64,000 nt of DNA from Escherichia phage HermannAdler_Bas98: sequence record PQ850608.1; one strand, given 5' to 3'. Below are positions 241 to 60,220 of the stretch, one piece after another. Below the pieces are notes generated by a model. It was not told the origin of the DNA, made no database searches, and saw only the letters and a list, made by a program, of their open reading frames with translations. Positions within the stretch are counted from its first letter, which is position 1. Each line of letters opens with the position of its first letter. Made by a program: the position numbers and the translations under genes.

Positions 241-241
241 T

Positions 242-24143: not shown

Positions 24144-24144
24144 G

Positions 24145-24175
24145 AAAAGGCCCATATGGGCCTTTGTTTATTTTA
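24145..24175. terminator. bidirectional terminator between convergent modules
   Basis: Perfect palindrome AAAGGCCCATATGGGCCTTT followed by T-rich tract. Confidence 0.55.
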
Positions 24176-24937: not shown

Positions 24938-25113
24938 TATAATTCACCTTTTGATTACGAATATTAATAGTATAGGCCGAAGGTTTTGAAAGTAAATAAG
25001 GCGAAAGGTAAATAAAAGAAAAGCCGGAGATTTCCGGCTTTATGTATACACTGTATATTAAATTCTATAAAACGACGCGATAGATTATCCGCACCAATTA
25101 CTTATCTAGTGTC

Positions 25114-27196: not shown

Positions 27197-27253
27197 GATG
27201 CACCAGATAAATAAAAGGCCGCCAATCGGCAGCCTTGTTGATTTGATTGTCGA

Positions 27254-28114
27254 TTAAAACTCTTCTGCGTCGGTCGGAGTTTCATTGACAGGACCAGCGG
27301 CACCGCTTGCTTCTTCCTGCTTGCTGCGGTCGATGTTGACGTTGCCGCCCACTACGTCATTGTGGAATGCCTTGGCGACTTCGTACAGACCTTTGTCCTG
27401 CACCAGACCTTCCAACTCAAACTTCAGAACGGACCAGGTGTTGCCGTCTTTGGACTGAGATGCAGTGCCCATGCGAACAATGTTCATAAAGGTCGGCGGC
27501 GTTTTCAGGCCCTGCGGAGTCTGAACTTTCTTCTGCTGCAGAGCGGTCATCAGCATGCGAGACGGCTTGATCATGGAAGAAGTCAGGGACAGCATTGCGC
27601 TACCAAATTCACCCGTTTCTTCGTTCAACAGAATCACGAAGTGGTTACGTGTATCTGCATAGTAAGGAGATTTCTTCTCGTGCACTTTGCCGTTTTCGTC
27701 CGGCACAAATACCTTACCGTTGATCTCAACAGCGCGGCCTGCCGCGACTTCTGCATCAACGTGCTCTTTGGTGAATTCACCTTTAAAGCCTTTATCGTCG
27801 GACTCGCGACCGCCCCAAAGGATGAAGGTGCGTTTGAATGCGCAAGGGATGATCTGCACGCCTTTCTTGCCGTCATACAACTCACCAGTGACGGTGTTGT
27901 ACAGCATGCCAGCTTTTGCGCCAGGAACGTGTTTAGGATCATCTTCGTCGACCATAGGTGACATCTTCTGCAGGACGACGATAAAAGGAATGGCATACGC
28001 ATCGGCATCGGCACCTTCAAAACCAGCGCCAAAATCGGTCATGTCGACAAAATCAGCCATAGCGGACATCTGGGTGTTTTTCACTGCAACTTCGGTGGTT
28101 TCTTTCTTAGACAT
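27254..28114 (-). CDS. putative ssDNA-binding protein (gp2.5-like)
   Basis: Acidic C-terminal tail ending ...ETPTDAEEF (terminal Phe as in T7 gp2.5-type SSBs); location in replication module. Confidence 0.3.
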   Translation of the reverse strand: MSKKETTEVAVKNTQMSAMADFVDMTDFGAGFEGADADAYAIPFIVVLQKMSPMVDEDDPKHVPGAKAGMLYNTVTGELYDGKKGVQIIPCAFKRTFILWGGRESDDKGFKGEFTKEHVDAEVAAGRAVEINGKVFVPDENGKVHEKKSPYYADTRNHFVILLNEETGEFGSAMLSLTSSMIKPSRMLMTALQQKKVQTPQGLKTPPTFMNIVRMGTASQSKDGNTWSVLKFELEGLVQDKGLYEVAKAFHNDVVGGNVNIDRSKQEEASGAAGPVNETPTDAEEF

Positions 28115-28173
28115 TTGATATTTTCCTATAGTATCAAGTTTCGTGGCAACCTGATTTCAAGATAAAGGTTAAA

Positions 28174-28731
28174 TTACTTTTTGCTTTTAGGCAAGGTTAT
28201 TTTAGCTTCTTTGTATTCAAAAACGCTAATATCTTCACTAACTGGATTGCCTGCTTCCAGCTGTTCTTTTACAAACGACTTCAGTGTAGCAGAATGAACG
28301 CCTTGTTTCAATGTGGCTTCAACACCATCTTCACGCAGCGCGGCAACAATCTCTTGCGCCTGTTCGATTTCTTCGCGACCGAACTCAGCCGTGACGCTGG
28401 ACTTGATCAGGCCGCCGTAACCGTTGTTGACAAGCCAATCGAAAACTTTTAATTCGTTTTCTTTCTTGATCGAAGCATTCACCTTGGACTCGACCTTGAT
28501 TTTGGTCTTGTCCTCAAGCTTGATCTCAGACACGCCAAGCTCCTCCATAACGCCAGGAAGCAGAACAGTTTTGATTTCACTGATGCGCTGCTTTTGCATA
28601 TCAGCTTCATCTTCAAGCTCTGTCAAAGCCTCTTGGCGTTCTGCCAGTTCAGATACTAAGCGCGCAAGGCGCTCTTGAATGCTCTCAGGAGCGACCTGCG
28701 GCAAATCATCTTCCCAATTAATATTGCTCAT
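28174..28731 (-). CDS. hypothetical protein
   Basis: 185 aa coiled-coil-rich ORF. Confidence 0.5.
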   Translation of the reverse strand: MSNINWEDDLPQVAPESIQERLARLVSELAERQEALTELEDEADMQKQRISEIKTVLLPGVMEELGVSEIKLEDKTKIKVESKVNASIKKENELKVFDWLVNNGYGGLIKSSVTAEFGREEIEQAQEIVAALREDGVEATLKQGVHSATLKSFVKEQLEAGNPVSEDISVFEYKEAKITLPKSKK

Positions 28732-28991
28732 ATTTTACCTTCTTGCATTAACCCTTCAACACGGGTCATTTGATAACGTTCAGGTTTCCAAGCAGCCAAA
28801 GCCTTCTCAGCGCCTTTTAAGGTTTTATACGCCTTGATGCCAGGCATAATAACGGTATTCACCCCAGCACCGTTGCCATGATCAAACTCTTTAACAACGC
28901 GAAACATTCCGTCAATTTCTTTGACCAAAAGACGTTTGAAAGCGATTGCGCCAGTAGCTTCATTTTTGTAACGTTCAAGGATGCGTACCAT
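28728..28991 (-). CDS. hypothetical protein
   Basis: 87 aa ORF overlapping downstream gene start. Confidence 0.5.
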   Translation of the reverse strand: MVRILERYKNEATGAIAFKRLLVKEIDGMFRVVKEFDHGNGAGVNTVIMPGIKAYKTLKGAEKALAAWKPERYQMTRVEGLMQEGKI

Positions 28992-29065
28992 TTTGTATTC
29001 CTCTGTTTCGTTTCGATGAAGTAATTATGACTCATCTTCCGTGACAAGTCAAATTATTTTTGATA

Positions 29066-30589
29066 TTAATTCATCTTTTTGCCGTCGAGGATGTGATCAG
29101 CAAGCATAGATTTCATGCTCAGTGAACGCTGAATTTCTTCGTCGATGGTATCAACACCAATAAAATCAACATACAACACGCTTGATTTGGTGCCGATGCG
29201 GTGATTTCGGTCTTCGGATTGCTTGCGCAACTCGTTGTCATAGTTGCAAGAATAATAGATTGCCAAGTCAGCGGCGGTAAGCGTGATTCCGATGCCTGCC
29301 GCAGCTGCGTGACACACCAACACTTGCGTTCCACCGTTCTCGACTGTGTTTTTCTGGAAGTCATCAATCAAGAACTCGCGCTGCTCTTTTGATGTTTCAC
29401 CGTTGTACGCACCAGTGACCACGCCTTCAGACTCAAGCCAATCCTTAATCTGGTTCATCTCTTCCTTAAAGATGGCCCACACGATGAATTTGCGCTCTGG
29501 GTCGTCTTCCAGCACCCCTTCCACATAGTCCTTAAAGGCCGTGAATCGTGGGTTGTCTTCCATGTAGACCATCTCATCATACACCTTAACAAAGCCTGAT
29601 GTCACCTGCTTCATCTTGGTGCGAGATGCGATCATCTCAAACTTAACGTTTTCTTCTTCGCCTTTGTACTCCATCAAATAGTTGTACTCATTCTTGAGTT
29701 CATCGTAGACATCGCGCTGCTTAGGCGACAACTCGAAGTCGATAAACTTGTACACCTTCTCTGGAAGGTCCGGCAAGTATTCCGCTTTTGTCGCGCGGAA
29801 ATAGTGCGGCTCCATCAGCCGGATAAGCTTGTCAAGGTTTTTGTACATCGGTCGACCAAACTGGTCTTTGCGCGGCACTTGCGGAATGCCATAACCGTTG
29901 CCGCCGATTTTCTTGAGAATGGCCTGCATCTCTGGGTCGTGCGCTTCAAGTAGAACTGTGAATTCAGAGTTGAATGCACGGAACGATTTGGTGCCAAGCA
30001 AGCCAGCTTCAAGGAAGTGATATTGCATGTAAATATCAGCAGGCGAGCGTGGCAGCGGCGTACCAGAAAGGATTCGACGGGCCTTTGCCAGCCGTCCCAA
30101 TTCCACAACCTTGATGGAGCGTTTGGCTGTGTTATTTTTGATACGCGTCGATTCATCAATGATCATCAAACAGCGGTATTTCTTCAAGACCGACTCAATG
30201 TGTTGATAACCGACTGGTGTGTTGACGGTGTCAATGTTGAATGAGAAGATGCGCGCAGGCACTTCGCCTTCAGGGTAGTGATCAGCAAACATCTTCTCCC
30301 AAAGCGCCTTGCCCTTTTTAGTCTTCATCTTGTCATTGCCGCGCCAGTAATGCCCAATCCACTTGATGGAAAGGTGCTCTGGCGCTTCACGACGAATCCA
30401 GTTTGAGTGGACACCGTTTGGAGCAATAACAACCATGGCATCAAACGCGCCAGCAGTGAAGTGCTTTTCAAACTCTGCCAAAGCAGTCCAGGTTTTGCCA
30501 AGACCCTGCTCCATAAAATAAGCAAAGTATTTTCTGCGGCCTGCTTTATCAAGCGCCAATAATTGGTGGCGCATTCCTTGTGTTTTCAT
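29066..30589 (-). CDS. SNF2-family helicase
   Basis: GLGKTWTA Walker A, DESTRIKN DExx box, C-terminal helicase domain. Confidence 0.75.
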   Translation of the reverse strand: MKTQGMRHQLLALDKAGRRKYFAYFMEQGLGKTWTALAEFEKHFTAGAFDAMVVIAPNGVHSNWIRREAPEHLSIKWIGHYWRGNDKMKTKKGKALWEKMFADHYPEGEVPARIFSFNIDTVNTPVGYQHIESVLKKYRCLMIIDESTRIKNNTAKRSIKVVELGRLAKARRILSGTPLPRSPADIYMQYHFLEAGLLGTKSFRAFNSEFTVLLEAHDPEMQAILKKIGGNGYGIPQVPRKDQFGRPMYKNLDKLIRLMEPHYFRATKAEYLPDLPEKVYKFIDFELSPKQRDVYDELKNEYNYLMEYKGEEENVKFEMIASRTKMKQVTSGFVKVYDEMVYMEDNPRFTAFKDYVEGVLEDDPERKFIVWAIFKEEMNQIKDWLESEGVVTGAYNGETSKEQREFLIDDFQKNTVENGGTQVLVCHAAAAGIGITLTAADLAIYYSCNYDNELRKQSEDRNHRIGTKSSVLYVDFIGVDTIDEEIQRSLSMKSMLADHILDGKKMN

Positions 30590-43495: not shown

Positions 43496-43786
43496 ATGAA
43501 CGAACCAAAAATGATGACCGTTGAAGAAGCACAAAATCTTCGTGTTGAAAACGAGCTTAAGCTTGTCAACCAGATTCTTCCCTTGTTTGCAGGCTACGCA
43601 GTGGAGGAAGTTGTTGGTGCAATCCTTAACGTATCCACGCATGTCGCTATGAATCTTCAGGCCGAACGATTCAACACGCTGCTGACTATTAAAAACCTTA
43701 CGGTCAGTGCAACGTTCACCGTTGAGCCAGTCAATTTTGACGAAGCTTCAGCCGCGATTCAACAGCAAAGAGATCAAGAGGTGTAG
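43496..43786 (+). CDS. hypothetical protein
   Basis: ATG 2 nt after upstream stop. Confidence 0.5.
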   Translation: MNEPKMMTVEEAQNLRVENELKLVNQILPLFAGYAVEEVVGAILNVSTHVAMNLQAERFNTLLTIKNLTVSATFTVEPVNFDEASAAIQQQRDQEV

Positions 43787-43787
43787 C

Positions 43788-44051
43788 ATGGGCGCTTTCC
43801 GTAACGAGTTCATCTGGAACGTTACCAGCAATCTCTCGACCTGCCCTAACTGTGCAAGCGATGTTATCAAGGTGCGGCAACATCGCAACGCGGAGGAAGG
43901 TGCCTGGGAAGATGGCGACCTTGTAGAGTGCCAGTGCTGCTCTCATGAAGGAGTTGTTGAGCTTCAAGCTGGTGAAGGTTGCCCACCAGCAGAGCGCACA
44001 GCACGCGTTGAATGGGATGCGACAGACTCCATTGGTGATCCTCAACAGTAA
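43788..44051 (+). CDS. small Cys-rich (zinc-ribbon-like) protein
   Basis: CPNC ... CQCC pairs; ATG 1 nt after upstream TAG. Confidence 0.45.
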   Translation: MGAFRNEFIWNVTSNLSTCPNCASDVIKVRQHRNAEEGAWEDGDLVECQCCSHEGVVELQAGEGCPPAERTARVEWDATDSIGDPQQ

Positions 44052-44069
44052 ATTTAGGTATAGATACTT

Positions 44070-44174
44070 ATGAAAGCCGTAAAGAAATACACATTAATCA
44101 TTTCCCTTGTTATCATCCTGGGGCTATTATATGTATTGGATATGGCATATTATTTGGCAGGGGTGAGTAAATGA
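44070..44174 (+). CDS. small membrane peptide (34 aa)
   Basis: Single hydrophobic helix; stop overlaps next start (ATGA). Confidence 0.3.
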   Translation: MKAVKKYTLIISLVIILGLLYVLDMAYYLAGVSK

Positions 44175-44461
44175 ATATTGTAATTCTTTATGGTGAAAAT
44201 ATCAGCGATGACGACATCGAAGTTGCCGTTGATGTTTACGGTATCGATGAGGTGAAACGTGTTGAAGAAATTAGTGGCGCAAATCTCAATGAGATTGTCA
44301 AAGAAGCTGGCTGTCCTTCGGAAGAGATTCTGGTGGTTACTAACGATGACCTGTCTTCTATGGATCATTTGCGCCGCATCTTCACCGATTGCCAATACCT
44401 TCATGCTGTTCAATCAGTAAACAAATTGAGAAAGGCATACGCTGACCAATTTCCTTGCTGA
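44171..44461 (+). CDS. hypothetical protein
   Basis: 96 aa ORF, GGGGTGAG RBS. Confidence 0.5.
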   Translation: MNIVILYGENISDDDIEVAVDVYGIDEVKRVEEISGANLNEIVKEAGCPSEEILVVTNDDLSSMDHLRRIFTDCQYLHAVQSVNKLRKAYADQFPC

Positions 44462-50024: not shown

Positions 50025-50305
50025 AGATGCAAAGATGTCCCCATTGCTTGTCCACGATGCAGCTTACTGCTGAAGAATATTTACATCACGTTAACGTTTG
50101 TGAGGCTAATCCTGAAAACTCGACGCGTTACTATTATCATTATCACGCAGAAGCGGAAGATGGATCAGGCGCAACAGGCATCGTCACCACTAAAGAAATG
50201 GTGATAACTAAAAAGGCATATGAAAGCTTGCTGGAGACGATTAAAGAAGTTTCTGGCAAAGAAATCACCTGTATTAAATCTTTATCTTTCTTGCACGAGG
50301 TATAA
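50021..50305 (+). CDS. small protein with N-terminal Cys/His zinc-finger-like module (paralogue A)
   Basis: MKMQRCPHCLSTMQL..EEYLHHVNVCEANPEN. Confidence 0.5.
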   Translation: MKMQRCPHCLSTMQLTAEEYLHHVNVCEANPENSTRYYYHYHAEAEDGSGATGIVTTKEMVITKKAYESLLETIKEVSGKEITCIKSLSFLHEV

Positions 50306-50306
50306 A

Positions 50307-50690
50307 ATGAGAATGAAGCGTTGCCCTTACTGCCACGATGTGATGCATCTTCCACACGAAGAGTTTGTGCAGCACATGACTAACTGTGATAAGAATCCTA
50401 ATAGCGAAAGCCAACTTGAAGAAAGAATGTTTCTTGTGTCATTCAAAGCTTCTGCTTATGAAGTGCAACGGGCTTACGGCGCACCAAGTACGATTTACTG
50501 TCCAACAACATTGAGAAGCGACATCGACTCAATTCAGCTTGCGGCCTGGATTAACGTTAAGGAAGGCATCACGCCGCACTTTATTGCGCGCATCCAATCT
50601 CAGATTCTACAAATGAAGCGCGAATACAACCGTGACATCACTGAAGTGAAGGTGCTGTCTATCACGCCGATGAATAAGGAGTTGCCGTGA
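50307..50690 (+). CDS. small protein with N-terminal Cys/His zinc-finger-like module (paralogue B)
   Basis: MRMKRCPYCHDVMHL..EEFVQHMTNCDKNPNS; same module as 50021-50305 with different C-terminus. Confidence 0.5.
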   Translation: MRMKRCPYCHDVMHLPHEEFVQHMTNCDKNPNSESQLEERMFLVSFKASAYEVQRAYGAPSTIYCPTTLRSDIDSIQLAAWINVKEGITPHFIARIQSQILQMKREYNRDITEVKVLSITPMNKELP

Positions 50691-50947
50691 ACAAGGGTCC
50701 GATGACTAAGTTAGCCGTTGCCGCGCGGAAGCTTCGACAAGCCGTTAATGGGTCGCGGCCCGTGGCGTTAACACTCGACGATGCAAAGGCACTGGTAGAG
50801 CTACTCGACGAGCACAACCGACGCAAGAATCTGGAGAACACATTACGCTGGCGCGTTACTCCGAAAGGGCGGGAGAGCGAAAAGAAAGCTTACTTGCGGC
50901 GCAAACTAAGGTCGGTCGGCCTTCACGAAGAGGCGAAGAATATTTAA
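50687..50947 (+). CDS. hypothetical basic protein
   Basis: AAGGAG RBS before GTG 50687. Confidence 0.45.
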   Translation: MNKGPMTKLAVAARKLRQAVNGSRPVALTLDDAKALVELLDEHNRRKNLENTLRWRVTPKGRESEKKAYLRRKLRSVGLHEEAKNI

Positions 50948-51019
50948 TTCAAAAAGGTGAGCTAAATGCTTGCCTTTTTATTTGCCTGTATTATACTTAG
51001 TTCATCAAGCAAAGGAGAA
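50946..51019 (+). promoter_or_regulatory. repeated promoter cassette copy 2
   Basis: Same 30-mer as 49411-49440; TTGCCT - 16 nt - TATACT. Confidence 0.55.
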
Positions 51020-51328
51020 ATGATTATGAGTTACGACGAAAGGTTTGGCAGAAGCGGATTATTTCATGACGCTGTACACAAAGACAGCAAAGATGTTGTC
51101 TGCGCATTCAAGGTTGATTCTTACGGTACGCTGAAACCATTTAAGGTCGGCGAAACATACAAGCTGTTTCACGGATGGTTGACGCGTCGCAACAACTTGC
51201 CTGACATGGAAGTCTGGTGGATAGAATACAAGGGTCAGGCTCATCGTTGCAAGGTTGTAGAGGTGCGCGGCGTGGAATACTATCAATCTGTTATCAGCGG
51301 CTTTGTTTTTAAAGAGGGTGAGCTATGA
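51020..51328 (+). CDS. hypothetical protein
   Basis: AAGGAG RBS. Confidence 0.5.
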   Translation: MIMSYDERFGRSGLFHDAVHKDSKDVVCAFKVDSYGTLKPFKVGETYKLFHGWLTRRNNLPDMEVWWIEYKGQAHRCKVVEVRGVEYYQSVISGFVFKEGEL

Positions 51329-51510
51329 GTACCGAAGTCCACAACGCATCAGCCTTGGTCAGCTTTTACCGTAACAAAGGCGTGTCACTCGTTAAAACGC
51401 CGCAAGGCATGCTGTTCTTTGGCACGCGCTTCCTTAAGGCTTCGGAGCGTGAAACGCTGTCCAAGTTCGACCAGAAAACATTACACGCAGTTTGGAGAAG
51501 ACAACCATGA
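51325..51510 (+). CDS. hypothetical protein
   Basis: ATGA overlap. Confidence 0.4.
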   Translation: MSTEVHNASALVSFYRNKGVSLVKTPQGMLFFGTRFLKASERETLSKFDQKTLHAVWRRQP

Positions 51511-51743
51511 CATCCAACCTTAAGGCCCGTTTATTATTCATCAAGCCGCATGTGCCGTATAAGATTAGTAAGCGCACCTGGCTTAACATTTACAACCGCA
51601 GCGGCGACCGTTGTTTGTACAAGGCGAAGCGGCGCAAGAAGGTATATTTAAAGGCTGTGATGTCGCAGCCAGTCGATGCATTCATCGTCGGCGAAAATGA
51701 ATTATCAATCGGCTATCAAATTGAACTCGGAGTAAAGAAATGA
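51507..51743 (+). CDS. hypothetical basic protein
   Basis: ATGA overlap. Confidence 0.45.
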   Translation: MTSNLKARLLFIKPHVPYKISKRTWLNIYNRSGDRCLYKAKRRKKVYLKAVMSQPVDAFIVGENELSIGYQIELGVKK

Positions 51744-52243
51744 AAATCGAACAACTCGAAGCAGTATTGGAAATGGCTGTTAAAGCAGGCGCAATCAAAA
51801 GCTGGCATCGCGAGAAGTCGGATGACGCCGCGCACTTTTGTCGCAACTTCTATATCGTTGGCAACCTTAATGACCACTACACCATCGAGTGGTATACTAA
51901 TATGATGACGCTTAAGTCGCGCACCATGGAGCTTTGGTGCAATGACATTTGCTTATCCAACACTCATCCATCCTACGACGTGGCATTGGCATTCTATTAC
52001 GGAAGTCATCAACCAGTAGCCCACATTGGTGAGAAGCACGAACACCTGAAGGCGGGACCAGAAGATTCAATGGAAGGTTGGATTGAATGGTCTGGCGGCA
52101 AGAATCCGGTGCCTGGTAAAAAGGTCATGTTGATGTGGAGGAATGGCGCAAAGTCATCATACGCTTTCAATTCAAAAGGATACATATGGACTCACGACGG
52201 AAGCACCCATGACATCATTGCTTATCGCGTCGTGGAGGAATAA
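51740..52243 (+). CDS. hypothetical protein sharing a C-terminal module with 53125-53550
   Basis: C-terminal W..GG.NPVPGK.V......G..S...W.......I.AYRVV.E shared with 53125-53550. Confidence 0.55.
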   Translation: MKIEQLEAVLEMAVKAGAIKSWHREKSDDAAHFCRNFYIVGNLNDHYTIEWYTNMMTLKSRTMELWCNDICLSNTHPSYDVALAFYYGSHQPVAHIGEKHEHLKAGPEDSMEGWIEWSGGKNPVPGKKVMLMWRNGAKSSYAFNSKGYIWTHDGSTHDIIAYRVVEE

Positions 52244-52584
52244 TGGAAGAGCAAGAAGGCCGTGAGCTAACGTTCGATGAACAGATGGCCGAACTTCAGC
52301 GCACATCGCCGCTGCGCGGTAAGGTTGTTGACATCGAGGCAAGCGAATCCAACCTCACCCAGTGGCGGCTCATGTGCACCAGCGCAGGCAAAGAGTTGTC
52401 AAGCTTCAAAGTCGGTCAGTCTTATTTGCTTTATGAGGCAAAAGGACTTATTATTGATGGAAGGCAAATCGTCTTCACTGTAGTCAGCGGAATGCGTTGG
52501 TTCGTGAAGCGTGATGTCGAGGGTCGTGACATGTTTGTCGCAGGCTTTCCAGAAACAAGATTCCAATTGGAGAAGGTTAAATGA
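52243..52584 (+). CDS. hypothetical protein
   Basis: ATG overlapping upstream TAA. Confidence 0.5.
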   Translation: MEEQEGRELTFDEQMAELQRTSPLRGKVVDIEASESNLTQWRLMCTSAGKELSSFKVGQSYLLYEAKGLIIDGRQIVFTVVSGMRWFVKRDVEGRDMFVAGFPETRFQLEKVK

Positions 52585-52913
52585 AATTGAAATGGTATGT
52601 GGACCCTGAGCCGACAGGCTCATACAGGTCATTCCAACGTCGCGGCTGGCCGATTTGTTACAGCGGCAATCCCGATAAAGAAGACTGCGAGGTGCTTGCC
52701 GCGATAGTAAGTCTTAATCATGACGGCTATGAAGGCCACTACGCGAGAGCAACCAACCTTCGTCTCAAGGTGCGCATCCATTTCAAGGTCGCAGGCGAGG
52801 ACCGCACCGGACTCTCCAAGGAAGAGTTCAGCAGCATTGCCGAAGCAAAGGCATGGCTCAAGGCGTTCTACAAGAACAATCCTAAATTTTATCCAACTAA
52901 GGGTGCATTATGA
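52581..52913 (+). CDS. hypothetical protein
   Basis: ATGA overlap. Confidence 0.5.
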   Translation: MKLKWYVDPEPTGSYRSFQRRGWPICYSGNPDKEDCEVLAAIVSLNHDGYEGHYARATNLRLKVRIHFKVAGEDRTGLSKEEFSSIAEAKAWLKAFYKNNPKFYPTKGAL

Positions 52914-53128
52914 CCGATAATCAATACGCAGTCGGGCAACGTGACATCGAGCAACTCGACGAGGGCGGCTATTATACGCGCCACATCTATGCCATGACTC
53001 ATGAAGGACTTTACAGCAAGTCGGACATCGCCGCTGAACTGGCCCATCGTGACTTGCAAATTGACCTTCTCAAGATAGAAATTCAAAACTTACGCAACAC
53101 CCTGTTAAACACCTGGAGCTTAAAATGA
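52910..53128 (+). CDS. hypothetical protein
   Basis: ATGA overlap. Confidence 0.45.
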   Translation: MTDNQYAVGQRDIEQLDEGGYYTRHIYAMTHEGLYSKSDIAAELAHRDLQIDLLKIEIQNLRNTLLNTWSLK

Positions 53129-53550
53129 TACAGCGTTACGACCTGACATATGACGTGGCATCAGACGATTTCGCCGTCACTCCCGTTCCAGAAAGTCATG
53201 AAGGACGTTTTGTTGCATATGAGGACTATGAATCACTACTCAAGCTTAATGAGTCGCTAACAAAAGAGATTGAGCAATACCGCGAGCGCATCAAAGCCGC
53301 TGAAGATGTTATCAAGCTTTTTAGCGAGGCTGTTGAGAAATACAAGGAGCGCAACGTGCCGATTAAGGAGGAAGCGTGGACCGTGTGGTTTGGTGGCGTG
53401 AATCCGGTGCCTGGGAAGATGGTTGAGTTTGAATTACTCAACGGTTATAAATCAAAAGGTGCTGTTCCTTCGGATAGTTTGACATGGGATAAAGTCACAA
53501 GCCCGACTGGTGCAAAGATTGTTGCTTATCGGGTCGTTAAGGAGGGGTGA
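53125..53550 (+). CDS. hypothetical protein sharing a C-terminal module with 51740-52243
   Basis: Coiled-coil N-terminus; same C-terminal NPVPGK...AYRVV module. Confidence 0.55.
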   Translation: MIQRYDLTYDVASDDFAVTPVPESHEGRFVAYEDYESLLKLNESLTKEIEQYRERIKAAEDVIKLFSEAVEKYKERNVPIKEEAWTVWFGGVNPVPGKMVEFELLNGYKSKGAVPSDSLTWDKVTSPTGAKIVAYRVVKEG

Positions 53551-53999
53551 TGGGTAACAAGCTTATCGCCGCTGGTTGGGCCATACCGAAGTGGGCTCAT
53601 CGTGCGCACTACTTTGATGAAGGAGAAGTGCAAAGCCTTTGCGGTCGCGCAACATACTTTGGTGATGAGCGCGTCAGCGGCGATTACATCGACTCGCTTT
53701 TAGGCAAAGGTGATTGCAAGAAATGTCAGGATATATTAAGAGATATTCTAACGCAAAAAGGACTGCTTGAGCTTGATGAGTCGGAGGAAGTAATAGAGCT
53801 TAAGCTTGAAGCCAATCACCTTATTAATATGTTCAAGAATTATTACTCAACGAATATGCGCTCAAAGATGCGTGAGGAAGTAATAAAAGAGGTGCTCACT
53901 TACAATCCGTTAAGGATGAATAAAACTAAACTGAAGAAGTTTAATGCAATAGTAAGAAAGGAATTTAGACGGCTTGGAGTGAAGAATTTTATATTTTAA
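53547..53999 (+). CDS. hypothetical protein
   Basis: Last gene of + strand operon; followed by terminator. Confidence 0.5.
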   Translation: MMGNKLIAAGWAIPKWAHRAHYFDEGEVQSLCGRATYFGDERVSGDYIDSLLGKGDCKKCQDILRDILTQKGLLELDESEEVIELKLEANHLINMFKNYYSTNMRSKMREEVIKEVLTYNPLRMNKTKLKKFNAIVRKEFRRLGVKNFIF

Positions 54000-54016
54000 T
54001 TATGATTAATGTTAAG

Positions 54017-54037
54017 AGGGCCGATTGGCCCTTTTTA
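54017..54037 (+). terminator. rho-independent terminator
   Basis: GGGCC-GATT-GGCCC hairpin followed by TTTTT; then TTTGCCT resembling cassette -35. Confidence 0.55.
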
Positions 54038-54529
54038 TTTGCCTGTGTAATGGGAGGCTTTTGTGGTTATTTACGATTCAAGGCTGTAATTTAAGAGAGC
54101 GAAAATATTATAATAATTTATCAAGATTATTGCATATTGTGGCAATCAACGTTTATACGTATTTATGACAGTTTAATCCACTAAATAATACGGATAGAAC
54201 AGTGAGGAAAATACAGCGGTGTATTTTAGTGTAAATATTGAATCAAAAATAAATAATTATGGTGCTATTATATACGCAGATTGTTTGTAATTTATAGGAT
54301 ATTTTATCGTGGAGTATTGGCTAACGGTGCGTTAGCCGTGGGTCTTGGTGCTTGTGGTGTTGATGCTCAGAATTTTAATAATGTTTTTAGTTTTAGTAAT
54401 CGTAGTCAATGATGATACGTATAAGAAAATGAGAGTCACCCCTTCACAGGATATTGTACCGTGGCCCTGTGGTGCGCCGCGCCTGGGATTGCTGGTATAC
54501 ACTGGTGCTATTTTGCCGCGAAGGCAGTC

Positions 54530-54790
54530 ATTCATACGTATCATGACGTATCATTGGGCTATTGATTTATAAGGAAAAATACGCTGATACGGATGATACG
54601 GGTGCAAACATAATATATATAGAATTCCAGAAAATTAATTAACTCCATTTTGAATTAATTTAAATTAATTTTTTTCTACATCCTCATACTTATACTAAAC
54701 TTATATTCATACGTATCATCCGTAAGATATAAGTAAAAACAAGGACTTGCGGCAATACGGATGATACGTCATGATACGCTTCGACCAGCC
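54530..54790. repeat. iteron / AT-rich module B (homologous to 2205-2480)
   Basis: CATACGTATCATGACGTATCAT, GATACGGATGATACG, AT-rich core with GAATTC and AATTAATTTAAATTAATTTTTTT, then CATACGTATCATCCGTA and AATACGGATGATACGTCATGATACG. Confidence 0.7.
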
Positions 54791-54943
54791 AGCAGCGGCT
54801 AAGTCATTGATTTGCATAGCAAGCGGCGAAAGGGATGGATTTCTTTTATACGTATCAAACAGTACACCACGCACCACGGTCCGCAATCCTATTTGCAATA
54901 TGATTTGTGTACGTTTATAGCCATAATGAACATCAATCTGCAC

Positions 54944-54972
54944 TTGAATATAATGTCCATCCATTGTATAAT
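54944..54972 (+). promoter_or_regulatory. sigma70-type promoter candidate
   Basis: TTGAAT - 17 nt - TATAAT. Confidence 0.45.
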
Positions 54973-54992
54973 TCACACTATTAATTTGCACT

Positions 54993-55481
54993 ATGGGATT
55001 TTGCACTATGAGTCAAGATTATGTAGCGATGCCTGAAGACTTTGAAGACCCGCGATTCGCAGAGCACAATCAGGCTTTATTCGATGAGTTCATTGACCTT
55101 GTTATTCAGGGTCATGACATGCGCGCAGCTTTTGCACTAGTATTTGGAATGGAAGTTGCAACGGATAACTACACTGGCCAGCGAATCCTTTGCACGCAAC
55201 GCAATCCATACTACAAGATGCGCTTCAAAAAGCGTATGGAAGAGATGCCACTCAAGGATTTGTGGAGCGTAAAAGGTGCAATTCACAATTTGGTCAAGCT
55301 TGTGCGTGATCCAGAAGTCGCGGCGTCAGCCAAGCTTAATGCTATTCGTGAACTGAATATCATCTACGGCATCACGATGATTGATGAAAACGGCAATAGT
55401 AAAATGGGCCGTTCTATGGACGATTTCTACAAGGATTTTGGAGAGGCTGCCAAAGAAGGAGAGCAATTCTCCCGCCACTAG
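54993..55481 (+). CDS. hypothetical protein (possible helix-turn-helix; terminase small subunit-like)
   Basis: 162 aa ORF; no Shine-Dalgarno; the repeat motif TTTGCACTATG lies on its start region; functional call speculative. Confidence 0.4.
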   Translation: MGFCTMSQDYVAMPEDFEDPRFAEHNQALFDEFIDLVIQGHDMRAAFALVFGMEVATDNYTGQRILCTQRNPYYKMRFKKRMEEMPLKDLWSVKGAIHNLVKLVRDPEVAASAKLNAIRELNIIYGITMIDENGNSKMGRSMDDFYKDFGEAAKEGEQFSRH

Positions 55482-55500
55482 CCAATTTGCACTATAAAAC

Positions 55501-55534
55501 GGCCCTAGAACACATGTTCTCCACTTCTAGGGCC
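55501..55534 (+). terminator. stem-loop (possible terminator)
   Basis: GGCCCTAGAA - 14 nt - TTCTAGGGCC; no T tract. Confidence 0.35.
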
Positions 55535-55595
55535 ATCGGTAATACGACGGGGAAGGTCGCACCCATAAACGCGTTAGAAAGTGTATTATTATAAG

Positions 55596-55859
55596 TCATC
55601 TTTTAGTCGCTTTACGTAACAATTTACGACCTTCAACCGTCCAATCGAACGACTCCACCAGCAGATTCGCACTATAACCTAAGACGATGCGCCCTTTCTC
55701 GTTATCGACCCGCCAACAAGTCTCGAATAGCATTCGATTTGCACTATTAACTATTGCCGCAACGCGCGTAGGGTAAGCGCAATTTGCACTATGGTCGTAA
55801 AGGGATAAGGTGCGACCACTTCCGATGGACAATGTAGCGATGAGAATAAGCGTATTCAT
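55596..55859 (-). CDS. hypothetical protein (doubtful ORF within repeat array)
   Basis: 87 aa ORF with GGTGG RBS, but contains three motif copies (translated as SAN). Confidence 0.3.
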   Translation of the reverse strand: MNTLILIATLSIGSGRTLSLYDHSANCAYPTRVAAIVNSANRMLFETCWRVDNEKGRIVLGYSANLLVESFDWTVEGRKLLRKATKR

Positions 55860-55909
55860 AAGCCACCAATTTGCACTATGAAAAGCGACCCCGAAGGGCC
55901 GCCATTCGA

Positions 55910-56536
55910 TTAGATAATCTGGAAGGTGTAGGACTTGTTGCCGAACTCGAAGTTCAAGCGTCCAGCTTCTTTAAGCTTCATGCGGAAGCGAATGTGCTTG
56001 CTATCCGGTAATCCCAGCGCGGCGAAGGCTACGCGGACCGATTTGAACTCGCCTACACCCTCGACCATAACGCCGTTACGGGTGAGACGCTTTTGCGCCA
56101 CTTCCTTATTATCCCAACTTTTTGCAATACCTTCGCTATTCGAACGGCGATGGGAAGGAGTTCCATTTTGCACTACGCAATTTGCACTATCGTTTAAGCC
56201 GCTCTTAACGAAGGCTTCATACTCTTCATCGCTCATCGCGTCGAGTTCTTCCTGGGTCGGCTCAGCCTTTTTAACGACCGCACGCGCCTTATGCGTTTTT
56301 ACATCACTGGACACTTCCTCACGCGGCTTCGCGTCGGGAATGGGCGATTCGTTGGACGGCTCATCGAGCGCGTTTAAGGACTCGATTAACGCGATTACGC
56401 GAGTCTCGGCGGTCCGGCGGTCCGCAAATTTCTTAATCGGCTTCGAACCGGAATTTGCATTATAAAATGCAACGAGGTCGGCGGTCTTAGTTGCGATAAC
56501 GTCGCCGCTAGTAGAAAAGCGATTTAAGCTAACCAT
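55910..56536 (-). CDS. hypothetical protein (candidate DNA-binding protein of the island)
   Basis: 208 aa; RBS context AGGAGTTTATTATGG identical to the next gene; two motif copies inside coding sequence. Confidence 0.5.
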   Translation of the reverse strand: MVSLNRFSTSGDVIATKTADLVAFYNANSGSKPIKKFADRRTAETRVIALIESLNALDEPSNESPIPDAKPREEVSSDVKTHKARAVVKKAEPTQEELDAMSDEEYEAFVKSGLNDSANCVVQNGTPSHRRSNSEGIAKSWDNKEVAQKRLTRNGVMVEGVGEFKSVRVAFAALGLPDSKHIRFRMKLKEAGRLNFEFGNKSYTFQII

Positions 56537-56616
56537 AATAAACTCCTATTTGTTAGGGCGCTAGGCGCGAAAGAATTTTATTAAAGCGCCGCGCACGACG
56601 CTCTAAAAATCCTCTC

Positions 56617-56931
56617 TTACTCTTCGTCGTCTTCGATTAATTCGAGGGCGAAGGCGTAAGCTTTGCTATCGTAATTAACTAAAACGGCGAGTTCGAACTC
56701 GTTAATAAACGCCGTTTTACCGCATAAATTTAATTCCGCATCGACTTCGAAGAATCCGTTTTCGTCGCGCTCTAAGCGAGAAGCAGCGAGTTGCTCGATT
56801 ACCGTCGCGTCGTTAATTTCTTCGCCTAAGCGAACGCCGGAGAATTTCGCGAGAATTTCGCCGTAAGTAAGCGTAACGCCCTGGACTTCGGCGGCGGCGT
56901 TTTCGAGGGTAAAGCGGGTAACGATAGCCAT
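56617..56931 (-). CDS. small very acidic protein (104 aa)
   Basis: 22 Asp/Glu vs 7 Lys/Arg; AGGAGTTTATTATGG start context; C-ending codon bias distinct from neighbouring early genes. Confidence 0.6.
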   Translation of the reverse strand: MAIVTRFTLENAAAEVQGVTLTYGEILAKFSGVRLGEEINDATVIEQLAASRLERDENGFFEVDAELNLCGKTAFINEFELAVLVNYDSKAYAFALELIEDDEE

Positions 56932-56999
56932 AATAAACTCCTAGTTGGGAGAGGCGTTAACGACCTATTCGTTAACTCATCCCGTCCCGATATGAGTAC

Positions 57000-57027
57000 A
57001 TTATAATATAGTGTAGAAAAAAGTAAA
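57000..57027 (-). promoter_or_regulatory. promoter cassette copy (minus strand) driving 56617-56931
   Basis: Minus strand reads GTGCTTTACT - 16 nt - TATAAT ... ATATCGGGACGGG, matching the two plus-strand cassettes. Confidence 0.5.
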
Positions 57028-57071
57028 GCACTTTTTCGATAAAAATGCGATAAATTATTTTATCTTTTTTC

Positions 57072-57099
57072 TTTACTTCTTCGTACACTCGCGTATACT
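57072..57099 (+). promoter_or_regulatory. promoter cassette copy driving 57156-57458
   Basis: CTTTACTTCTTCGTACACT ... TATACT (16 nt spacer) ... TTTATATCGAGACGGG. Confidence 0.5.
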
Positions 57100-57155
57100 T
57101 GTTTATATCGAGACGGGCGATGGCCCTTTCTTCTACTAGCATCGGGAGCTTTATT

Positions 57156-57458
57156 ATGACTACTTTAATCTCTTCCATCCTTACTTACGACGAAGACCGC
57201 TTAACCGTTCGCTCTCTTATCGCCGCCGTTAACGCGGAACTAGAATCTAGCGCCATTAAGGTCCGCGCGGTCGCCTTCATCGGCCTTTCCTTCGACGATA
57301 TGAAGTATGCCGAACGTAGCGCCATCCGCTTCGCGAAGACCGACGACGAAGCCGTTACCCTTATCGAGACGGTTACGCCGCGCGGCGAAGCGTTAATTAT
57401 CGTCGAGTATATCGACGTAGAAGGCGATAAATCTTATAAACATTTTATCGCAGAATAA
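57156..57458 (+). CDS. small acidic protein (100 aa)
   Basis: 18 Asp/Glu vs 11 Lys/Arg; C-ending codon bias. Confidence 0.6.
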   Translation: MTTLISSILTYDEDRLTVRSLIAAVNAELESSAIKVRAVAFIGLSFDDMKYAERSAIRFAKTDDEAVTLIETVTPRGEALIIVEYIDVEGDKSYKHFIAE

Positions 57459-57470
57459 CGAAAAAAGTGC

Positions 57471-57499
57471 TTTACTTCTTCGTACACTAAGACTATAAT
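57471..57499 (+). promoter_or_regulatory. promoter cassette copy driving 57567-57857
   Basis: GTGCTTTACTTCTTCGTACACT ... TATAAT (17 nt spacer) ... TTTATATCGAGAGGGG. Confidence 0.55.
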
Positions 57500-57566
57500 G
57501 TTTTATATCGAGAGGGGATGAGGTAGCGAATAGGTCACTACCCTCCCGACTAACTAGGAGAATATT

Positions 57567-57857
57567 ATGATTACTTTAGCCGCTATCCGTTCCGCTCGCG
57601 TCGAAACTTCCGAAAACTCTAACGTATTTGGCGAAAAACTTAAAAACGTTTATCTCTTTAACGTAGATGCGACTATCGAGGAGCTTCACAGTCCTATCGA
57701 TTTTAGCGAATTTACGGAACTCGAAGAGGAAGATATTTCTACCTTCCGCGTTACTATCGAAGGCAAGGTTTATTTTGCTACGGAGTTCGGCGGCGAATAT
57801 CTCGCGGTATCCGAAGGCGAAGGCCGTTACTCTTTCTTTAAAATCGTTTCCTTATAA
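57567..57857 (+). CDS. small acidic protein (96 aa)
   Basis: 18 Asp/Glu vs 8 Lys/Arg; TAGGAG RBS. Confidence 0.6.
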   Translation: MITLAAIRSARVETSENSNVFGEKLKNVYLFNVDATIEELHSPIDFSEFTELEEEDISTFRVTIEGKVYFATEFGGEYLAVSEGEGRYSFFKIVSL

Positions 57858-57877
57858 TACCCTTCCGTTACTAATAG

Positions 57878-57900
57878 GCCGCGCTTAGTCGCGGCTTTTC
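57878..57900 (+). terminator. rho-independent terminator
   Basis: GCCGCG-CTTAGT-CGCGGC followed by TTTT. Confidence 0.6.
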
Positions 57901-57904
57901 TTCG

Positions 57905-58555
57905 TCCCTATCTCGATGCGCTCCTACGCGAAAACTCCTTTATCCTTCCCTTCGTCGTCGCATAATCTTCTTCGAGATGCGTCTTAGTTCGCATAACAGG
58001 TATTACGTTAAATGGAGAACATCGCGTAAGTCCTTGTTTTATATAGACACCTATATCGGACCGTTAGGGCGGGTCGCGTAAGTCGTTGTTTTATAAAGGC
58101 ACAAAACTTTCCCTTCGTTCCGAACTAAAACGAGAAATATGCCGACCCTTCGCCCGAAAATAGTACGTATGCGAAATTACATTCATCTCGAATAATCCCT
58201 CCCGATATTATCCTACACGCAATCATTCGCTTTCGAATCATTATGCTTCATATTATTATGCGTCGAATCATTCGCTTTCGAATTGTAACGCTGGAAACTG
58301 TAACGTCGATTGATTATTGCGTTCGTGTGGTTTTTATGGCATGGGTCTTTTGGTGCGTTTTGCTACTTGATGGAATTTGCGGTACACTAATCAAAATACG
58401 ACACATTTGGTCCACTAACTTTTCAAAGAAAAAGTCCTAGACAGTACCGTACTATTTTGTACCCACAGGAAATTTGCAGTACACTCCTGAGCGGCAGGCA
58501 AAATAAAGGGCCGCACTAAGCGACCCACGATTCACGGTTAAATCAGCAACACCCA
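57905..58555. repeat. noncoding repeat-rich region
   Basis: No credible ORF; duplicated GCGTAAGTC(C/G)TTGTTTTATA, duplicated AATCATTCGCTTTCGAAT (ATTCG...CGAAT arms), duplicated TTTGC(G/A)GTACACT. Confidence 0.55.
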
Positions 58556-58936
58556 CTATTCGCTCTTATGGGCATCACCAAAGCCATCCGCAATCTGGCT
58601 GATCAATGATTCAATGGACACAGTTTTACCAATTGATCGAGCGGTAATAGCAAGCATATTATCAATCAAACCATGATTGGATGCATATGGTCCAGGTTTT
58701 GAATCATCTTCAGGACAACCAAAAAGCTGGTCGCGCAAACTTTCGAGAGAACGCTCAATATTTTCCAGCTTCTCTTCTAAATCAGATTGGCGACGTAAAA
58801 CCCATGTTAAGTCTCGGTTGCCGACTTCCAATCCATCGAAATCGCAAGCTGGAACGTCAATTTTAATACTTGGATTAAAAGCAGTACCGCTGCCTTTAGT
58901 ATATTTGTGGTGATTGCGATCAATAGTTTGTGACAT
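58556..58936 (-). CDS. hypothetical protein
   Basis: Start MSQTIDR chosen (AAGGT RBS). Confidence 0.45.
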   Translation of the reverse strand: MSQTIDRNHHKYTKGSGTAFNPSIKIDVPACDFDGLEVGNRDLTWVLRRQSDLEEKLENIERSLESLRDQLFGCPEDDSKPGPYASNHGLIDNMLAITARSIGKTVSIESLISQIADGFGDAHKSE

Positions 58937-59030
58937 ATCATTACCTTTAATATTTGGGTGATTAACAATAACTATAATAAAGCCGCATAGCGCGGCATTC
59001 AAATCGGTTTGTTAATTGTAACGATTGAAT

Positions 59031-59126
59031 TTACTTATCCAACCAATCAATAAGCGCAATCATAGCAACAACAAATACTGCGCTGATTGCTAATATGATC
59101 AAGAACATCACAAAATCAACATTCAT
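59031..59126 (-). CDS. small membrane peptide (31 aa)
   Basis: MNVDFVMFLIILAISAVFVVAMIALIDWLDK; overlaps upstream gene end. Confidence 0.3.
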   Translation of the reverse strand: MNVDFVMFLIILAISAVFVVAMIALIDWLDK

Positions 59127-59352
59127 CAATCGATACCAATTGTGCAGGGTCGCCGGATACAGTTGCGCCGATGATACCCATATGAGAGAAAAATTCTGAA
59201 TAAACTTCTTTCCAGTACTTGCGCGCAGCTTTCTGGGCTTGCCCTTTGCGCTTGTAGCTTTTACCTTGGAAGATGAAGCGGTCGTTTGCTGCGTTATATT
59301 CCACCACACCTTCCAGCCATTGTAAGAAAGCTACTGATTCATTTTGATTCAT
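59116..59352 (-). CDS. hypothetical protein
   Basis: 78 aa ORF. Confidence 0.45.
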   Translation of the reverse strand: MNQNESVAFLQWLEGVVEYNAANDRFIFQGKSYKRKGQAQKAARKYWKEVYSEFFSHMGIIGATVSGDPAQLVSIDEC

Positions 59353-59359
59353 GTTAACC

Positions 59360-59755
59360 TCAACAATCTAATAAGAAAATTTTTAACCAGCTTTCTGCAA
59401 CCTCGCGGCCCGTAGCCAATCGGTCGGTATTTTCCATTGGTCTGGATTTACCGCATGGCAATCCTTTCTGTAGTTGTGTCCCACTGCCAATTCTTATCCA
59501 AATTTCCCCATCCTTGTCGACGTAGGCTTGGCAACCCATAATATCAAGTCTACTCATTAGGGTGTTAAAAACCTTGAGCCTTTCTTTGGCGATGTTGGCT
59601 GTTCCTCCATTTCTTGGACCACGGCGATTAACAGTCCGCTTCACAACCGGAATATCATTGGTGCGTCGCGGCTTGGGGCGGTAGTAGGCTTCTTCACCAG
59701 GAGTGACACCTGGCGTCAGTTCGCGCTTAAGCGCCTTTTCAATATCAATGATCAT
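59360..59755 (-). CDS. hypothetical protein
   Basis: 131 aa basic ORF. Confidence 0.5.
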   Translation of the reverse strand: MIIDIEKALKRELTPGVTPGEEAYYRPKPRRTNDIPVVKRTVNRRGPRNGGTANIAKERLKVFNTLMSRLDIMGCQAYVDKDGEIWIRIGSGTQLQKGLPCGKSRPMENTDRLATGREVAESWLKIFLLDC

Positions 59756-60146: not shown

Positions 60147-60220
60147 CTCACTTGTTAACGTATAATGAGTATAACTTAATAGTGAATAAAGTAAAGGCGC
60201 TTTTCAGCGCCTTGAGTGAA

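Follow-up and report, generated by a model that had tools for sequence, protein, structure and literature searches.

What would a phage gain from a set of very small, acidic genes that sit behind copies of a single promoter cassette at the ends of its genome, in DNA from which two dinucleotides have nearly been removed? The question is raised by positions 55480-58555 of a 64,000-nucleotide stretch of Escherichia phage HermannAdler_Bas98 (PQ850608.1), which we refer to in full as the window. A preliminary description of this DNA proposed an island of tiny acidic proteins that might serve in anti-defense or host takeover, and likened it to the left end of phage T7. We lean towards reading the region as an immediate-early accessory-gene module that lies inside the phage's direct terminal repeat (DTR), and below we set out the promoters, the gene content, and the base composition that bear on this reading, together with the alternatives to it.

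A small-gene module within the direct terminal repeat

Megablast of 55480-58555 against GenBank phages identified the source as a Wifcevirus myophage: all 28 records returned are Wifcevirus (Escherichia and Shigella phages), the top one being vB_EcoM_WFC (WFC) with 97.8% identity along the entire region. In linear records that begin at the physical genome end, the region occupies bases 833-3909. In the WFC record, bases 1-3784 are repeated at the right end and correspond to 54647-58431 of the window, while in the Mansfield record bases 1-3673 are annotated as a DTR from a PhageTerm prediction, and a terminal repeat of ~3.7 kb has been described for both WFC and WFH (Korf et al., PMC6563267). 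The studied region is thus the inner three-quarters of a ~3.8 kb DTR, collapsed to one copy in the window, and because the module lies inside the repeat each virion carries it twice, once at either genome end. Its principal features are as follows.

54647-58431, unstranded: direct terminal repeat (end repeat of WFC; PhageTerm in Mansfield; Korf et al.)
56350-58100, unstranded: segment poor in CA/TG and rich in CG and TA, taking in the promoters, orfC, orfD, orfE, the 5' half of orfB, and the first ~200 nucleotides (nt) of a noncoding stretch
56617-56931, minus strand: orfC, 104 residues, in the variable slot after P1
56956-56976, minus strand: leader hairpin of P1, GUUAACG-AAUAGGU-CGUUAAC, supported by covariation
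57027-57000, minus strand: promoter P1, TTTACT-16 nt-TATAAT with an A-tract upstream (-35 at 57027-57022, -10 ending at 57000), from promoter scan and alignment
57072-57099, plus strand: promoter P2, TTTACT-16 nt-TATACT, divergent from P1 and ahead of orfD
57156-57458, plus strand: orfD, 100 residues, an acidic open reading frame (ORF)
57471-57499, plus strand: promoter P3, TTTACT-17 nt-TATAAT, ahead of orfE
57522-57542, plus strand: leader hairpin of P3, GGUAGCG-AAUAGGU-CACUACC, supported by covariation
57567-57857, plus strand: orfE, 96 residues, an acidic ORF with two allele types
57876-57897, plus strand: intrinsic-terminator-like hairpin 3' of orfE, a terminator in the WFC and Mansfield annotations

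The module lies in the DTR, its conserved cassettes are of sigma-70 type, a terminator follows orfE, and the phage genome encodes no RNA polymerase (nor a methyltransferase); we therefore favor an immediate-early module. The cassette is a portable unit made up of an A-tract, a TTTACT -35 box, a spacer of 16-17 nt, a TATAAT or TATACT -10 box, a conserved transcript start, and a 5' hairpin. Under this reading the host's sigma-70 RNA polymerase would transcribe the module less than a minute into infection, at whichever genome end is first to enter the cell, and the acidic products would bind host proteins as host-takeover or anti-defense factors, perhaps accounting in part for the restriction resistance of the genus. 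The hairpin, with its AAUAGGU loop, would be bound by a factor or would control the stability or translation of the early mRNA, and the cassettes could double as recombination points for the swapping of genes.

Repeated promoter cassettes and a leader hairpin with a constant loop

The triplicated cassette of the preliminary description, with two copies on the plus strand and one on the minus strand, is borne out by both a promoter scan, in which P1, P2, and P3 are all among the top matches, and by alignment, and the copies are genuine repeats of a sigma-70-type promoter, as the earlier wording of host-type promoters had it. P1 and P3 agree with the sigma-70 consensus at 10 of 12 positions (TTTACT-16/17-TATAAT) and P2 at 9 of 12 (TTTACT-16-TATACT), all three with spacers of sigma-70 length and with perfect or near-perfect -10 boxes. 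The homology between P1 and P3 spans ~120 nt, from the upstream A-tract to the start codon; P2 shares with them the promoter and the first transcribed bases, and has a shorter leader. The earlier layout of the cassette was sound and its spelling was in part not, as P2 reads TTTCTTTACT rather than GTGCTTTACT, with TATACT as its -10 box, and the minus-strand copy, P1, continues downstream with CATATCGGGACGGG, which corrects the consensus first given. P1 and P2 stand back to back with 45 bp between them. P1 is predicted to drive orfC, and probably orfB too, and the start context AGGAGTTTATTATGG, rightly noticed before as common to two minus-strand genes, occurs exactly twice, at the starts of orfB (55910-56536) and orfC (56617-56931). 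Elsewhere in the window, further TTTACT-N16-18-TATA(A/C)T sites lie upstream of minus-strand genes at 24969-24996 and 60168-60195 (minus strand), and TTTACT may therefore be the usual -35 form of this phage.

Soon after the predicted transcript starts of P1 and P3 comes a 7-bp hairpin with the loop AAUAGGU. Serratia phage SMP (Myosmarvirus) carries a hairpin with the identical loop behind the same type of promoter, on a different stem (CGGGCG/CGCCCG). Among the copies of P1, P3, and the Serratia phage, five of the seven stem pairs have changed on both sides in a compensatory manner; across eight versions of the hairpin the loop and closing pair are constant and 98% of cells are paired, a pattern far above every shuffle and register shift. 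That the loop stays constant while the stem covaries suggests that a specific factor recognizes the hairpin, with stabilization of the 5' end or ribosome recruitment (through the AGGU in the loop) as alternatives. We ruled out a site for RNase III, as the stem is just 7 bp long. Rfam gave zero matches at E ≤ 1 across 54000-59500, the leader hairpins and the noncoding stretch included, and a scan of IMG/VR with TATAAT-N12-40-CGAATAGGTC returned mostly chance matches, the true ones among those listed being an SMP-like contig and ECML-117. The invariant-loop hairpin and its recurrence in SMP would seem to be a new finding; we came across no earlier report of it, or of the exclusion of CA and TG described below.

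Variable slots and genus-restricted acidic products

Comparison of eight Wifcevirus genomes shows a stable set of promoters with changing genes behind them. P1 and P2 are kept in all eight, and an exact match to P3 is found in seven, RCIP0319 being the one without. The slot 3' of P1 holds the 104-residue orfC in the window and WFC; in Mansfield, SP13, F13, and AV128 it holds an acidic protein of 94 residues that is unrelated to orfC and is a paralog of orfE (hhalign probability 87%, E-value 4e-6), and in RCIP0319 it is empty. AV128 has an additional 50-residue gene ahead of P3, ECML-117, SP13, and F13 have an additional 69-residue gene 3' of orfE, and in F13 P3 is duplicated along with ~300 bp, such that genomes carry three to four copies of the cassette.

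The three acidic ORFs of 96-104 residues were found where the preliminary description had placed them, with isoelectric points (pI) of 4.07 for orfC (104 residues, net charge -15, with a DDEE tail), 4.65 for orfD (100 residues, net charge -7), and 4.40 for orfE (96 residues, net charge -10). By acidity per residue, orfC ranks first and orfE fourth among the 93 ORFs of the window. The plus-strand small-gene region at 43496-44461 also encodes three adjacent acidic proteins (96, 87, and 96 residues, pI 4.3-4.5) that match orfE in acidity and have a normal base composition.

The preliminary description recognized none of these proteins, and the profile and structure searches did not either; searches of Pfam, PHROGs, PADLOC, and PDB sequences with the counterparts of orfC, orfD, and orfE in relatives were likewise empty. 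A word-indexed search of 5.8 billion proteins found relatives of the three in Wifcevirus only, with just four homolog clusters for orfC. An exhaustive profile search of 1.84 billion proteins with orfD gave two distant relatives (E-values 2e-12 and 4e-7), and two further matches were discarded as spurious hits to repeat proteins. A distant orfD relative is encoded on a 141-kb phage contig of normal composition, within a long array of genes for 60-130 residues that has consensus TTGACA/TATAAT promoters, and this looks like an early-gene array. With hhalign, no relation emerged for orfC with orfE, or for orfD with the 98-residue protein of the SMP segment introduced below. AlphaFold models were of limited use: that of orfC (predicted local distance difference test, pLDDT, 45) is too poor for a judgement of fold, while that of orfE (pLDDT 71.7) is beta-rich and forms a beta-meander.

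In pairwise comparisons with other isolates, orfB and the nearby terminase-like gene have ratios of nonsynonymous to synonymous substitution rates (dN/dS) of 0.01-0.09 and 0.04, respectively, whereas orfD has 0.18-0.29 and orfE 0.42-0.53. The small genes are true coding genes under looser constraint than these neighbors. For orfE there are two deeply diverged allele types, with a synonymous divergence (dS) of 0.65 and 35-39% of residues differing, where flanking genes have dS of 0.1-0.3, and the first 38 N-terminal residues are invariant between the two types. Such alleles would indicate either allele replacement or old balanced variation.

Exclusion of CA and TG

The most striking property of the module is its composition. 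In a segment of ~1.7 kb (56350-58000) the symmetric CA/TG odds are 0.27, compared to 1.18 elsewhere in the window (z = -14 relative to 66 further windows of 1650 bp), while CG is raised (2.14 versus 1.09 elsewhere), as is TA (1.21 versus 0.67). Every word that holds CA or TG is depleted: CATG occurs 0 times, CAG/CTG are eight-fold lower, CTG being the most depleted trinucleotide, and TTGA/TCAA is seen once where ~37 are expected. TCGA, CGCG, the normally rare CTAG, TTCGAA, and GTTAAC are enriched. On the sense strand, genes of either orientation are short of CA and TG to the same degree, and depletion runs ~200 nt beyond the terminator into noncoding DNA; in orfB the 5' half is depleted and the 3' half is not. 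Within orfC, orfD, and orfE the effect peaks at codon junctions, where C|A and T|G together are seen 13 times compared to 64.6 expected from position-specific base frequencies, and C|G and T|A are in excess. The bias is strong enough to reach the proteins: glutamine, histidine, cysteine, tryptophan, and methionine together make up 0.02-0.04 of orfC, orfD, and orfE, the minimum of the proteome, versus 0.109 +/- 0.035.

The preliminary description had seen this as codon usage rich in C-ending codons. A comparison of the island with the rest supports the observation, third-position C being 0.43-0.45 in orfC and orfD and 0.34 in orfE versus 0.254 +/- 0.049 in 60-odd other genes (z = 3.7, 4.0, and 1.8 for orfC, orfD, and orfE), and yet it understates the effect, which is an exclusion of CA/TG at the level of dinucleotides rather than codon adaptation. 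Three simple causes were ruled out. Codon optimization does not fit, as leucine is written TTA, CTT, or CTA and not CTG and depletion is strongest at codon junctions; the latter also rules out causes at the level of tRNAs; and a single mutational bias does not account for CG and TA both taking the place of CA/TG, since this requires all four types of transition.

The same signature is found in Serratia phage SMP, although its orfB shares only ~43% amino acid identity. SMP has exactly one CA/TG-poor segment, of ~1.9 kb (CA/TG 0.12-0.35, CG 1.8-2.4, TA 1.1-1.4), with promoters GCTTTACT-17-TATAAT and TAGACT-17-TATAAT, the hairpin, a short paralog of orfB, acidic proteins of 104 and 98 residues, a terminator, and ~400 nt of noncoding DNA, and it lies near a 172-residue ORF that is putatively terminase-like by position. 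The exclusion of CA/TG and the invariant-loop hairpin are thus, as far as these genomes indicate, conserved across two genera. There was no CA/TG-poor segment in the first 50 kb of Bas99 or in the whole genome of the Pbunavirus PA8P1 (minimum odds 0.62), and 921 kb of unrelated viral contigs held no window with odds below 0.5 (minimum 0.51).

Could the odd composition simply be the mark of a foreign donor, with no selection maintaining it? The sharp boundaries and the single island per genome would fit such an origin, as would the absence of the genes from Pbunavirus and the evident gene flux mediated by the cassettes. However, the 921 kb of unrelated viral contigs put no donor in sight, and the signature follows position rather than gene family, as seen in the two halves of orfB and in the normal composition of the SMP orfB paralog that lies outside the island. 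The relative of orfD in another phage is of normal composition, and the bias is equally extreme in two genera and kept in orfE alleles that differ at dS 0.65, where decay would be expected. The persistence of the bias in diverged genera and alleles, its dependence on position in orfB, and the normal orfD relative therefore point to continuing selection and not a fading foreign mark, and we regard a purely foreign origin as unlikely. Most likely, the exclusion of CA/TG reflects ongoing selection at the level of nucleic acid, peculiar to this early DNA and to enterobacterial hosts.

What such selection might respond to is a more tentative matter. One possibility, which we hold with clear reservation, is that CA and TG are selected against in the first-expressed DNA or RNA and that their near-absence reveals an agent that reads nucleic acid at the resolution of dinucleotides. 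The agent could belong to the host, as a sensor or nuclease that meets the entering DNA or the early transcripts, or to the phage, as a nuclease that the early module must escape, and the invariant-loop leader hairpin would then be part of the same control system. In animals, the zinc-finger antiviral protein (ZAP) senses CpG, and an agent of the host would be a bacterial counterpart. Other ideas are immunity to a nuclease of the module's own, the loss of ATG, GTG, and TTG starts and of TTGACA-like boxes on both strands, or a zone free of primase sites near the genome end. For T5, the first-step-transfer DNA must in some form be immune to T5's own nuclease. Neither a literature search for dinucleotide bias in the early genes of phages nor one for transcription in Pbunavirus turned up a relevant paper.

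Alternatively, the exclusion of CA/TG might free the first-expressed DNA of host restriction or methylation sites until its products can act, much as the first-step-transfer DNA of T5 is without EcoRI sites. The island holds 258 distinct known restriction sites compared to 322 +/- 15 in control windows (minimum 285), and 17 sites of enterobacterial-named enzymes compared to 33.6 +/- 3.5 (minimum 27), fewer in each case than any control window; the distinct-site count is similarly lowered in the SMP island, neither island contains GATC, which falls further below the expectation from trinucleotide content than any other tetranucleotide, and among the genera examined only the two with enterobacterial hosts have the island. 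Nevertheless, CA/TG is present in only about a third of known sites, total site matches are not reduced, and many short palindromes are enriched (TCGA, CGCG, CTAG, TTCGAA, GTTAAC). A site-free leader would also be useful only if the remaining genome entered later. We find this explanation improbable, much like that of a foreign donor.

GATC itself has a distribution of its own. The 8.4 kb of 50163-58601, which takes in the upstream small-gene region and the whole DTR, contains one GATC only, at 55308, and the two intervals on either side of it are the longest GATC-free intervals of the window; in SMP, too, the longest GATC-free intervals are in its small-gene region and island. As this GATC-poor zone is far wider than the island, we rejected GATC avoidance as a trait specific to the island, and its width counts against the avoidance of host sites as well.

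Neighboring genes and the genome end

The module is bordered by the following features.

54993-55481, plus strand: small-terminase-like gene (phrog_4783; terminase small subunit by HHpred-based annotation in Mansfield), inside the DTR and of normal base composition
55596-55859, minus strand: orfA, 87 residues, basic (pI 9.7), a coding sequence in the WFC and Mansfield annotations
55910-56536, minus strand: orfB, 208 residues (phrog_4730), with its 5' half in the CA/TG-poor segment
57898-58555, unstranded: noncoding repeat-rich stretch, spanning the inner DTR boundary (58431)

In tblastn, orfB matched 355 phage records, mostly Pseudomonas Pbunavirus and also Serratia, Xanthomonas, and other phages. 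It is conserved in PB1-like phages, where it adjoins the terminase-like gene as well, and its PHROG is unannotated. SMP has two orfB paralogs on the minus strand, a short one (8078-8581, 167 residues) inside the CA/TG-poor island and a long one (12109-13143, 344 residues) of normal composition, whose N-terminal extension gives a sub-threshold match to a NusA-like KH domain (19 bits against a cut-off of 27). A profile of orfB found no match in the PDB; a weak match of the window's orfB there to the NusA N-terminal region (E-value 0.23) is not significant, and since both matches fall short of threshold, we do not take them as evidence for a relation of the orfB family to NusA.

The noncoding repeat region that had been described beside the acidic genes does exist, at 57898-58555, and holds both direct and inverted repeats: GAATCATTCGCTTTCGAAT occurs twice (58222-58240 and 58267-58285), an inverted repeat joins 57968-57995 with 58168-58195, and direct repeats start at 58022 and 58074. 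The latter form a tandem-like pair, TCGCGTAAGTC(C/G)TTGTTTTATA, in 58022-58102, with the GAATCATTCGCTTTCGAAT pair as a second one in 58222-58285, at the inner DTR boundary. Motifs containing GTACAC are found at 58374-58393 and 58470-58489, and the complementary GTGTAC motifs adjoin the SMP island. At the other side of the DTR, the AT-rich noncoding region 54410-54860, which crosses the left DTR boundary, has direct and inverted repeats of CGTATCA / CCGTATCATCCGTATCA in common with the AT-rich noncoding region 2180-2480; of these CGTATCA-type repeats, ATACGGATGATACG is present twice and CGTATCATGACGTATCAT has a perfect inverted copy. A phage regulator or replication protein may bind the repeats of the two regions.

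With up to two mismatches, AATTTGCACTAT occurs 19 times in the window versus 9.6 expected. Thirteen copies lie in or beside the terminase-like gene (54890-56463 and 58471-58482), all on the plus strand even within the minus-strand orfA and orfB, and the six beyond this zone are no more than chance would give. The copies may mark small-terminase binding sites (pac- or cosB-like), or else phage-specific rightward promoters antisense to the leftward early genes.

This setting invites the proposal that the module serves the biology of the genome end, its repeats, hairpins, and odd composition acting as signals in packaging, duplication of the repeat, the formation of concatemers, or stepwise entry of the DNA, and its small proteins assisting in these processes. 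The module is in the DTR and adjoins the terminase-like gene, orfB is found next to that gene in Pbunavirus and Myosmarvirus alike, the one-strand AATTTGCACTAT cluster is close by, and the repeat-rich noncoding stretch at the inner DTR boundary recalls the injection stop signal of T5. CTG is the start site of E. coli primase, and its place as the most depleted trinucleotide would be in keeping with a zone where priming does not occur and the ends stay single-stranded over a long distance. The slots, however, are variable, fast-evolving, and dispensable-looking, unlike core packaging functions, and RCIP0319 does without a gene in the orfC slot. Moreover, the promoters are host-type, whereas packaging genes are usually late, and Pbunavirus has the same packaging genes with no island. 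We therefore think it distinctly unlikely that genome-end biology is what the module is for.

Restriction resistance and the case for an early module

Wifcevirus phages have a published phenotype of resistance to EcoKI, EcoCFT_I, EcoRI, EcoRV, and EcoCFT_II, a set that covers restriction of types I, II, and III, being sensitive only to EcoP1_I. They resist despite 36-38 EcoRI sites, 6-10 EcoRV sites, and ~90 type III sites, and with no known mechanism of protection. These phages have also been reported to be very fast (PMC11990801). An anti-defense function must be encoded somewhere in this genome, and an early-expressed protective function is plausible in these phages, although nothing maps such a function to the module.

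The preliminary description looked to Ocr, the acidic DNA mimic of T7, and the notion that one or more of the acidic proteins block restriction enzymes in this manner draws on the charge of orfC (-15 in 104 residues, with the DDEE tail) and orfE (-10), on their probable place among the first proteins expressed, and on the resistance of the genus to type I enzymes without a known mechanism, but it is a poor candidate: the three proteins have zero sequence similarity to solved structures, the orfE model is a beta-meander with no fold match in the PDB or among viral structures rather than the helical Ocr fold, acidity is widespread in the proteome, and the phages also resist EcoRI and EcoRV despite the sites just given, while Ocr-type mimics are known to act on type I and BREX systems. 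The Ocr idea is thus unsupported for orfE, whose model speaks weakly against an Ocr-like fold, and for none of the three does a PDB sequence match speak for it.

Several points weigh against the immediate-early module that we favor. Both its early timing and the strength of its promoters are predicted from sequence. The acidic products are cast as takeover factors with no family or structure match behind them: orfC, orfD, and orfE gave no meaningful matches in Pfam, PHROGs, or PADLOC and none to PDB chains by sequence, and the orfE model has no fold relative in the PDB or among viral structures. Acidity is common in this proteome, with 12 of 40 small ORFs having a pI below 5, and part of it might be a by-product of composition. 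C-ending codons need successors that start with G, which encode aspartate, glutamate, glycine, alanine, or valine, and the acidity may therefore come in part from the exclusion of CA/TG; the equally biased orfB paralog of SMP is basic, which runs counter to this. The genes behind the restriction resistance could lie at any place in the genome, or the resistance could be a matter of DNA modification. As for the hairpin, its folding energies are no better than those of shuffled sequence, and its covariation comes from three independent lineages only. On the whole, the earlier notion of a takeover or anti-defense module finds partial support, in the promoters, in small, acidic, genus-restricted, and fast-evolving products, and in the variable slots; its link to Ocr finds no support, and T7 is not the best analogy.

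The three to five small genes of the module, which are easy to delete or express, are the natural starting point in a search for the source of the restriction resistance of Wifcevirus, and the architecture of the cassettes shows how early genes are swapped in such phages. The CA/TG-free composition is strong enough to shift the amino acid content of proteins and is conserved across genera, and should selection maintain it, this would mean an undescribed pressure on incoming phage DNA or early RNA. It also provides a simple signature for finding similar modules in other phages. It is for the exclusion of CA/TG and the invariant-loop hairpin that the locus deserves experiments.

Comparison with known systems

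The left end of T7, with gene 0.3 and its product Ocr, has in common with the module strong host promoters near the genome end and a small, acidic, first-expressed protein. Sequence searches did not link any of the three proteins to Ocr, and the fold search with the orfE model did not either. The T7 terminal repeat is 160 bp, whereas the genes of the module lie inside a long repeat, with three promoters that each have a gene of their own and that point in two directions. The T7 left end had been offered as the model for the layout, and here the first-step-transfer region of T5 is closer, with its DTR, divergent promoters, and repeat-rich inner boundary. Bacillus phage SPO1 likewise keeps a cluster of small host-takeover genes, with strong early promoters and ribosome-binding sites, in a long terminal repeat; that module comprises ~24 genes in 13 kb, and its host and sigma factor context differ.

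The pre-early region of T5 resembles the module in its kilobase-scale direct terminal repeat, its divergent host-type promoters, its small genes mostly of unknown function, its terminator, and the noncoding, repeat-rich DNA with which the repeat ends on its inner side, the latter being the site of the injection stop signal in T5. The restriction resistance of T5 maps to this pre-early region and is unexplained. The T5 repeat measures 10.2 kb, in a siphovirus with two-step entry, compared to 3.8 kb in a myovirus here, and no homologs of A1, A2, or dmp turned up in the Pfam and PHROG family searches, which did not include a direct comparison with T5 A1 and A2. Unlike the module, T5 shows no depletion of CA/TG (odds 0.81-1.07). 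Its CpG odds are 1.3-1.5 in the repeat (1-10219 of NC_005859) and 0.5-0.95 beyond it (10220-30000), and with such a step where the repeat ends, first-entering DNA may more generally be set apart by its composition.

A parallel in design comes from the PeSL (promoter-early stem-loop) cassettes of T4-type phages, promoter-hairpin units that flank exchangeable small genes (Arbiol et al. 2010, PMC2839356; Comeau et al. 2014, PMC4122927). Both systems combine repeats of an early sigma-70 promoter and a stem-loop with variable small genes that appear to have been gained, lost, and shuffled, and the module displays the repeated promoter and stem-loop units, the variable slots, and, in F13, a duplicated P3 unit. 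There is no sequence relation between the two, and the resemblance is functional only. The PeSL stem-loop is terminator-like and upstream of the promoter, whereas the module has its hairpin, whose loop is invariant, within the leader transcript downstream of the promoter, and the module is confined to the DTR and carries an extreme dinucleotide bias. The analogy to Ocr is thus weak and those to T5 and PeSL are better, and the module is an unrelated instance of the PeSL design.

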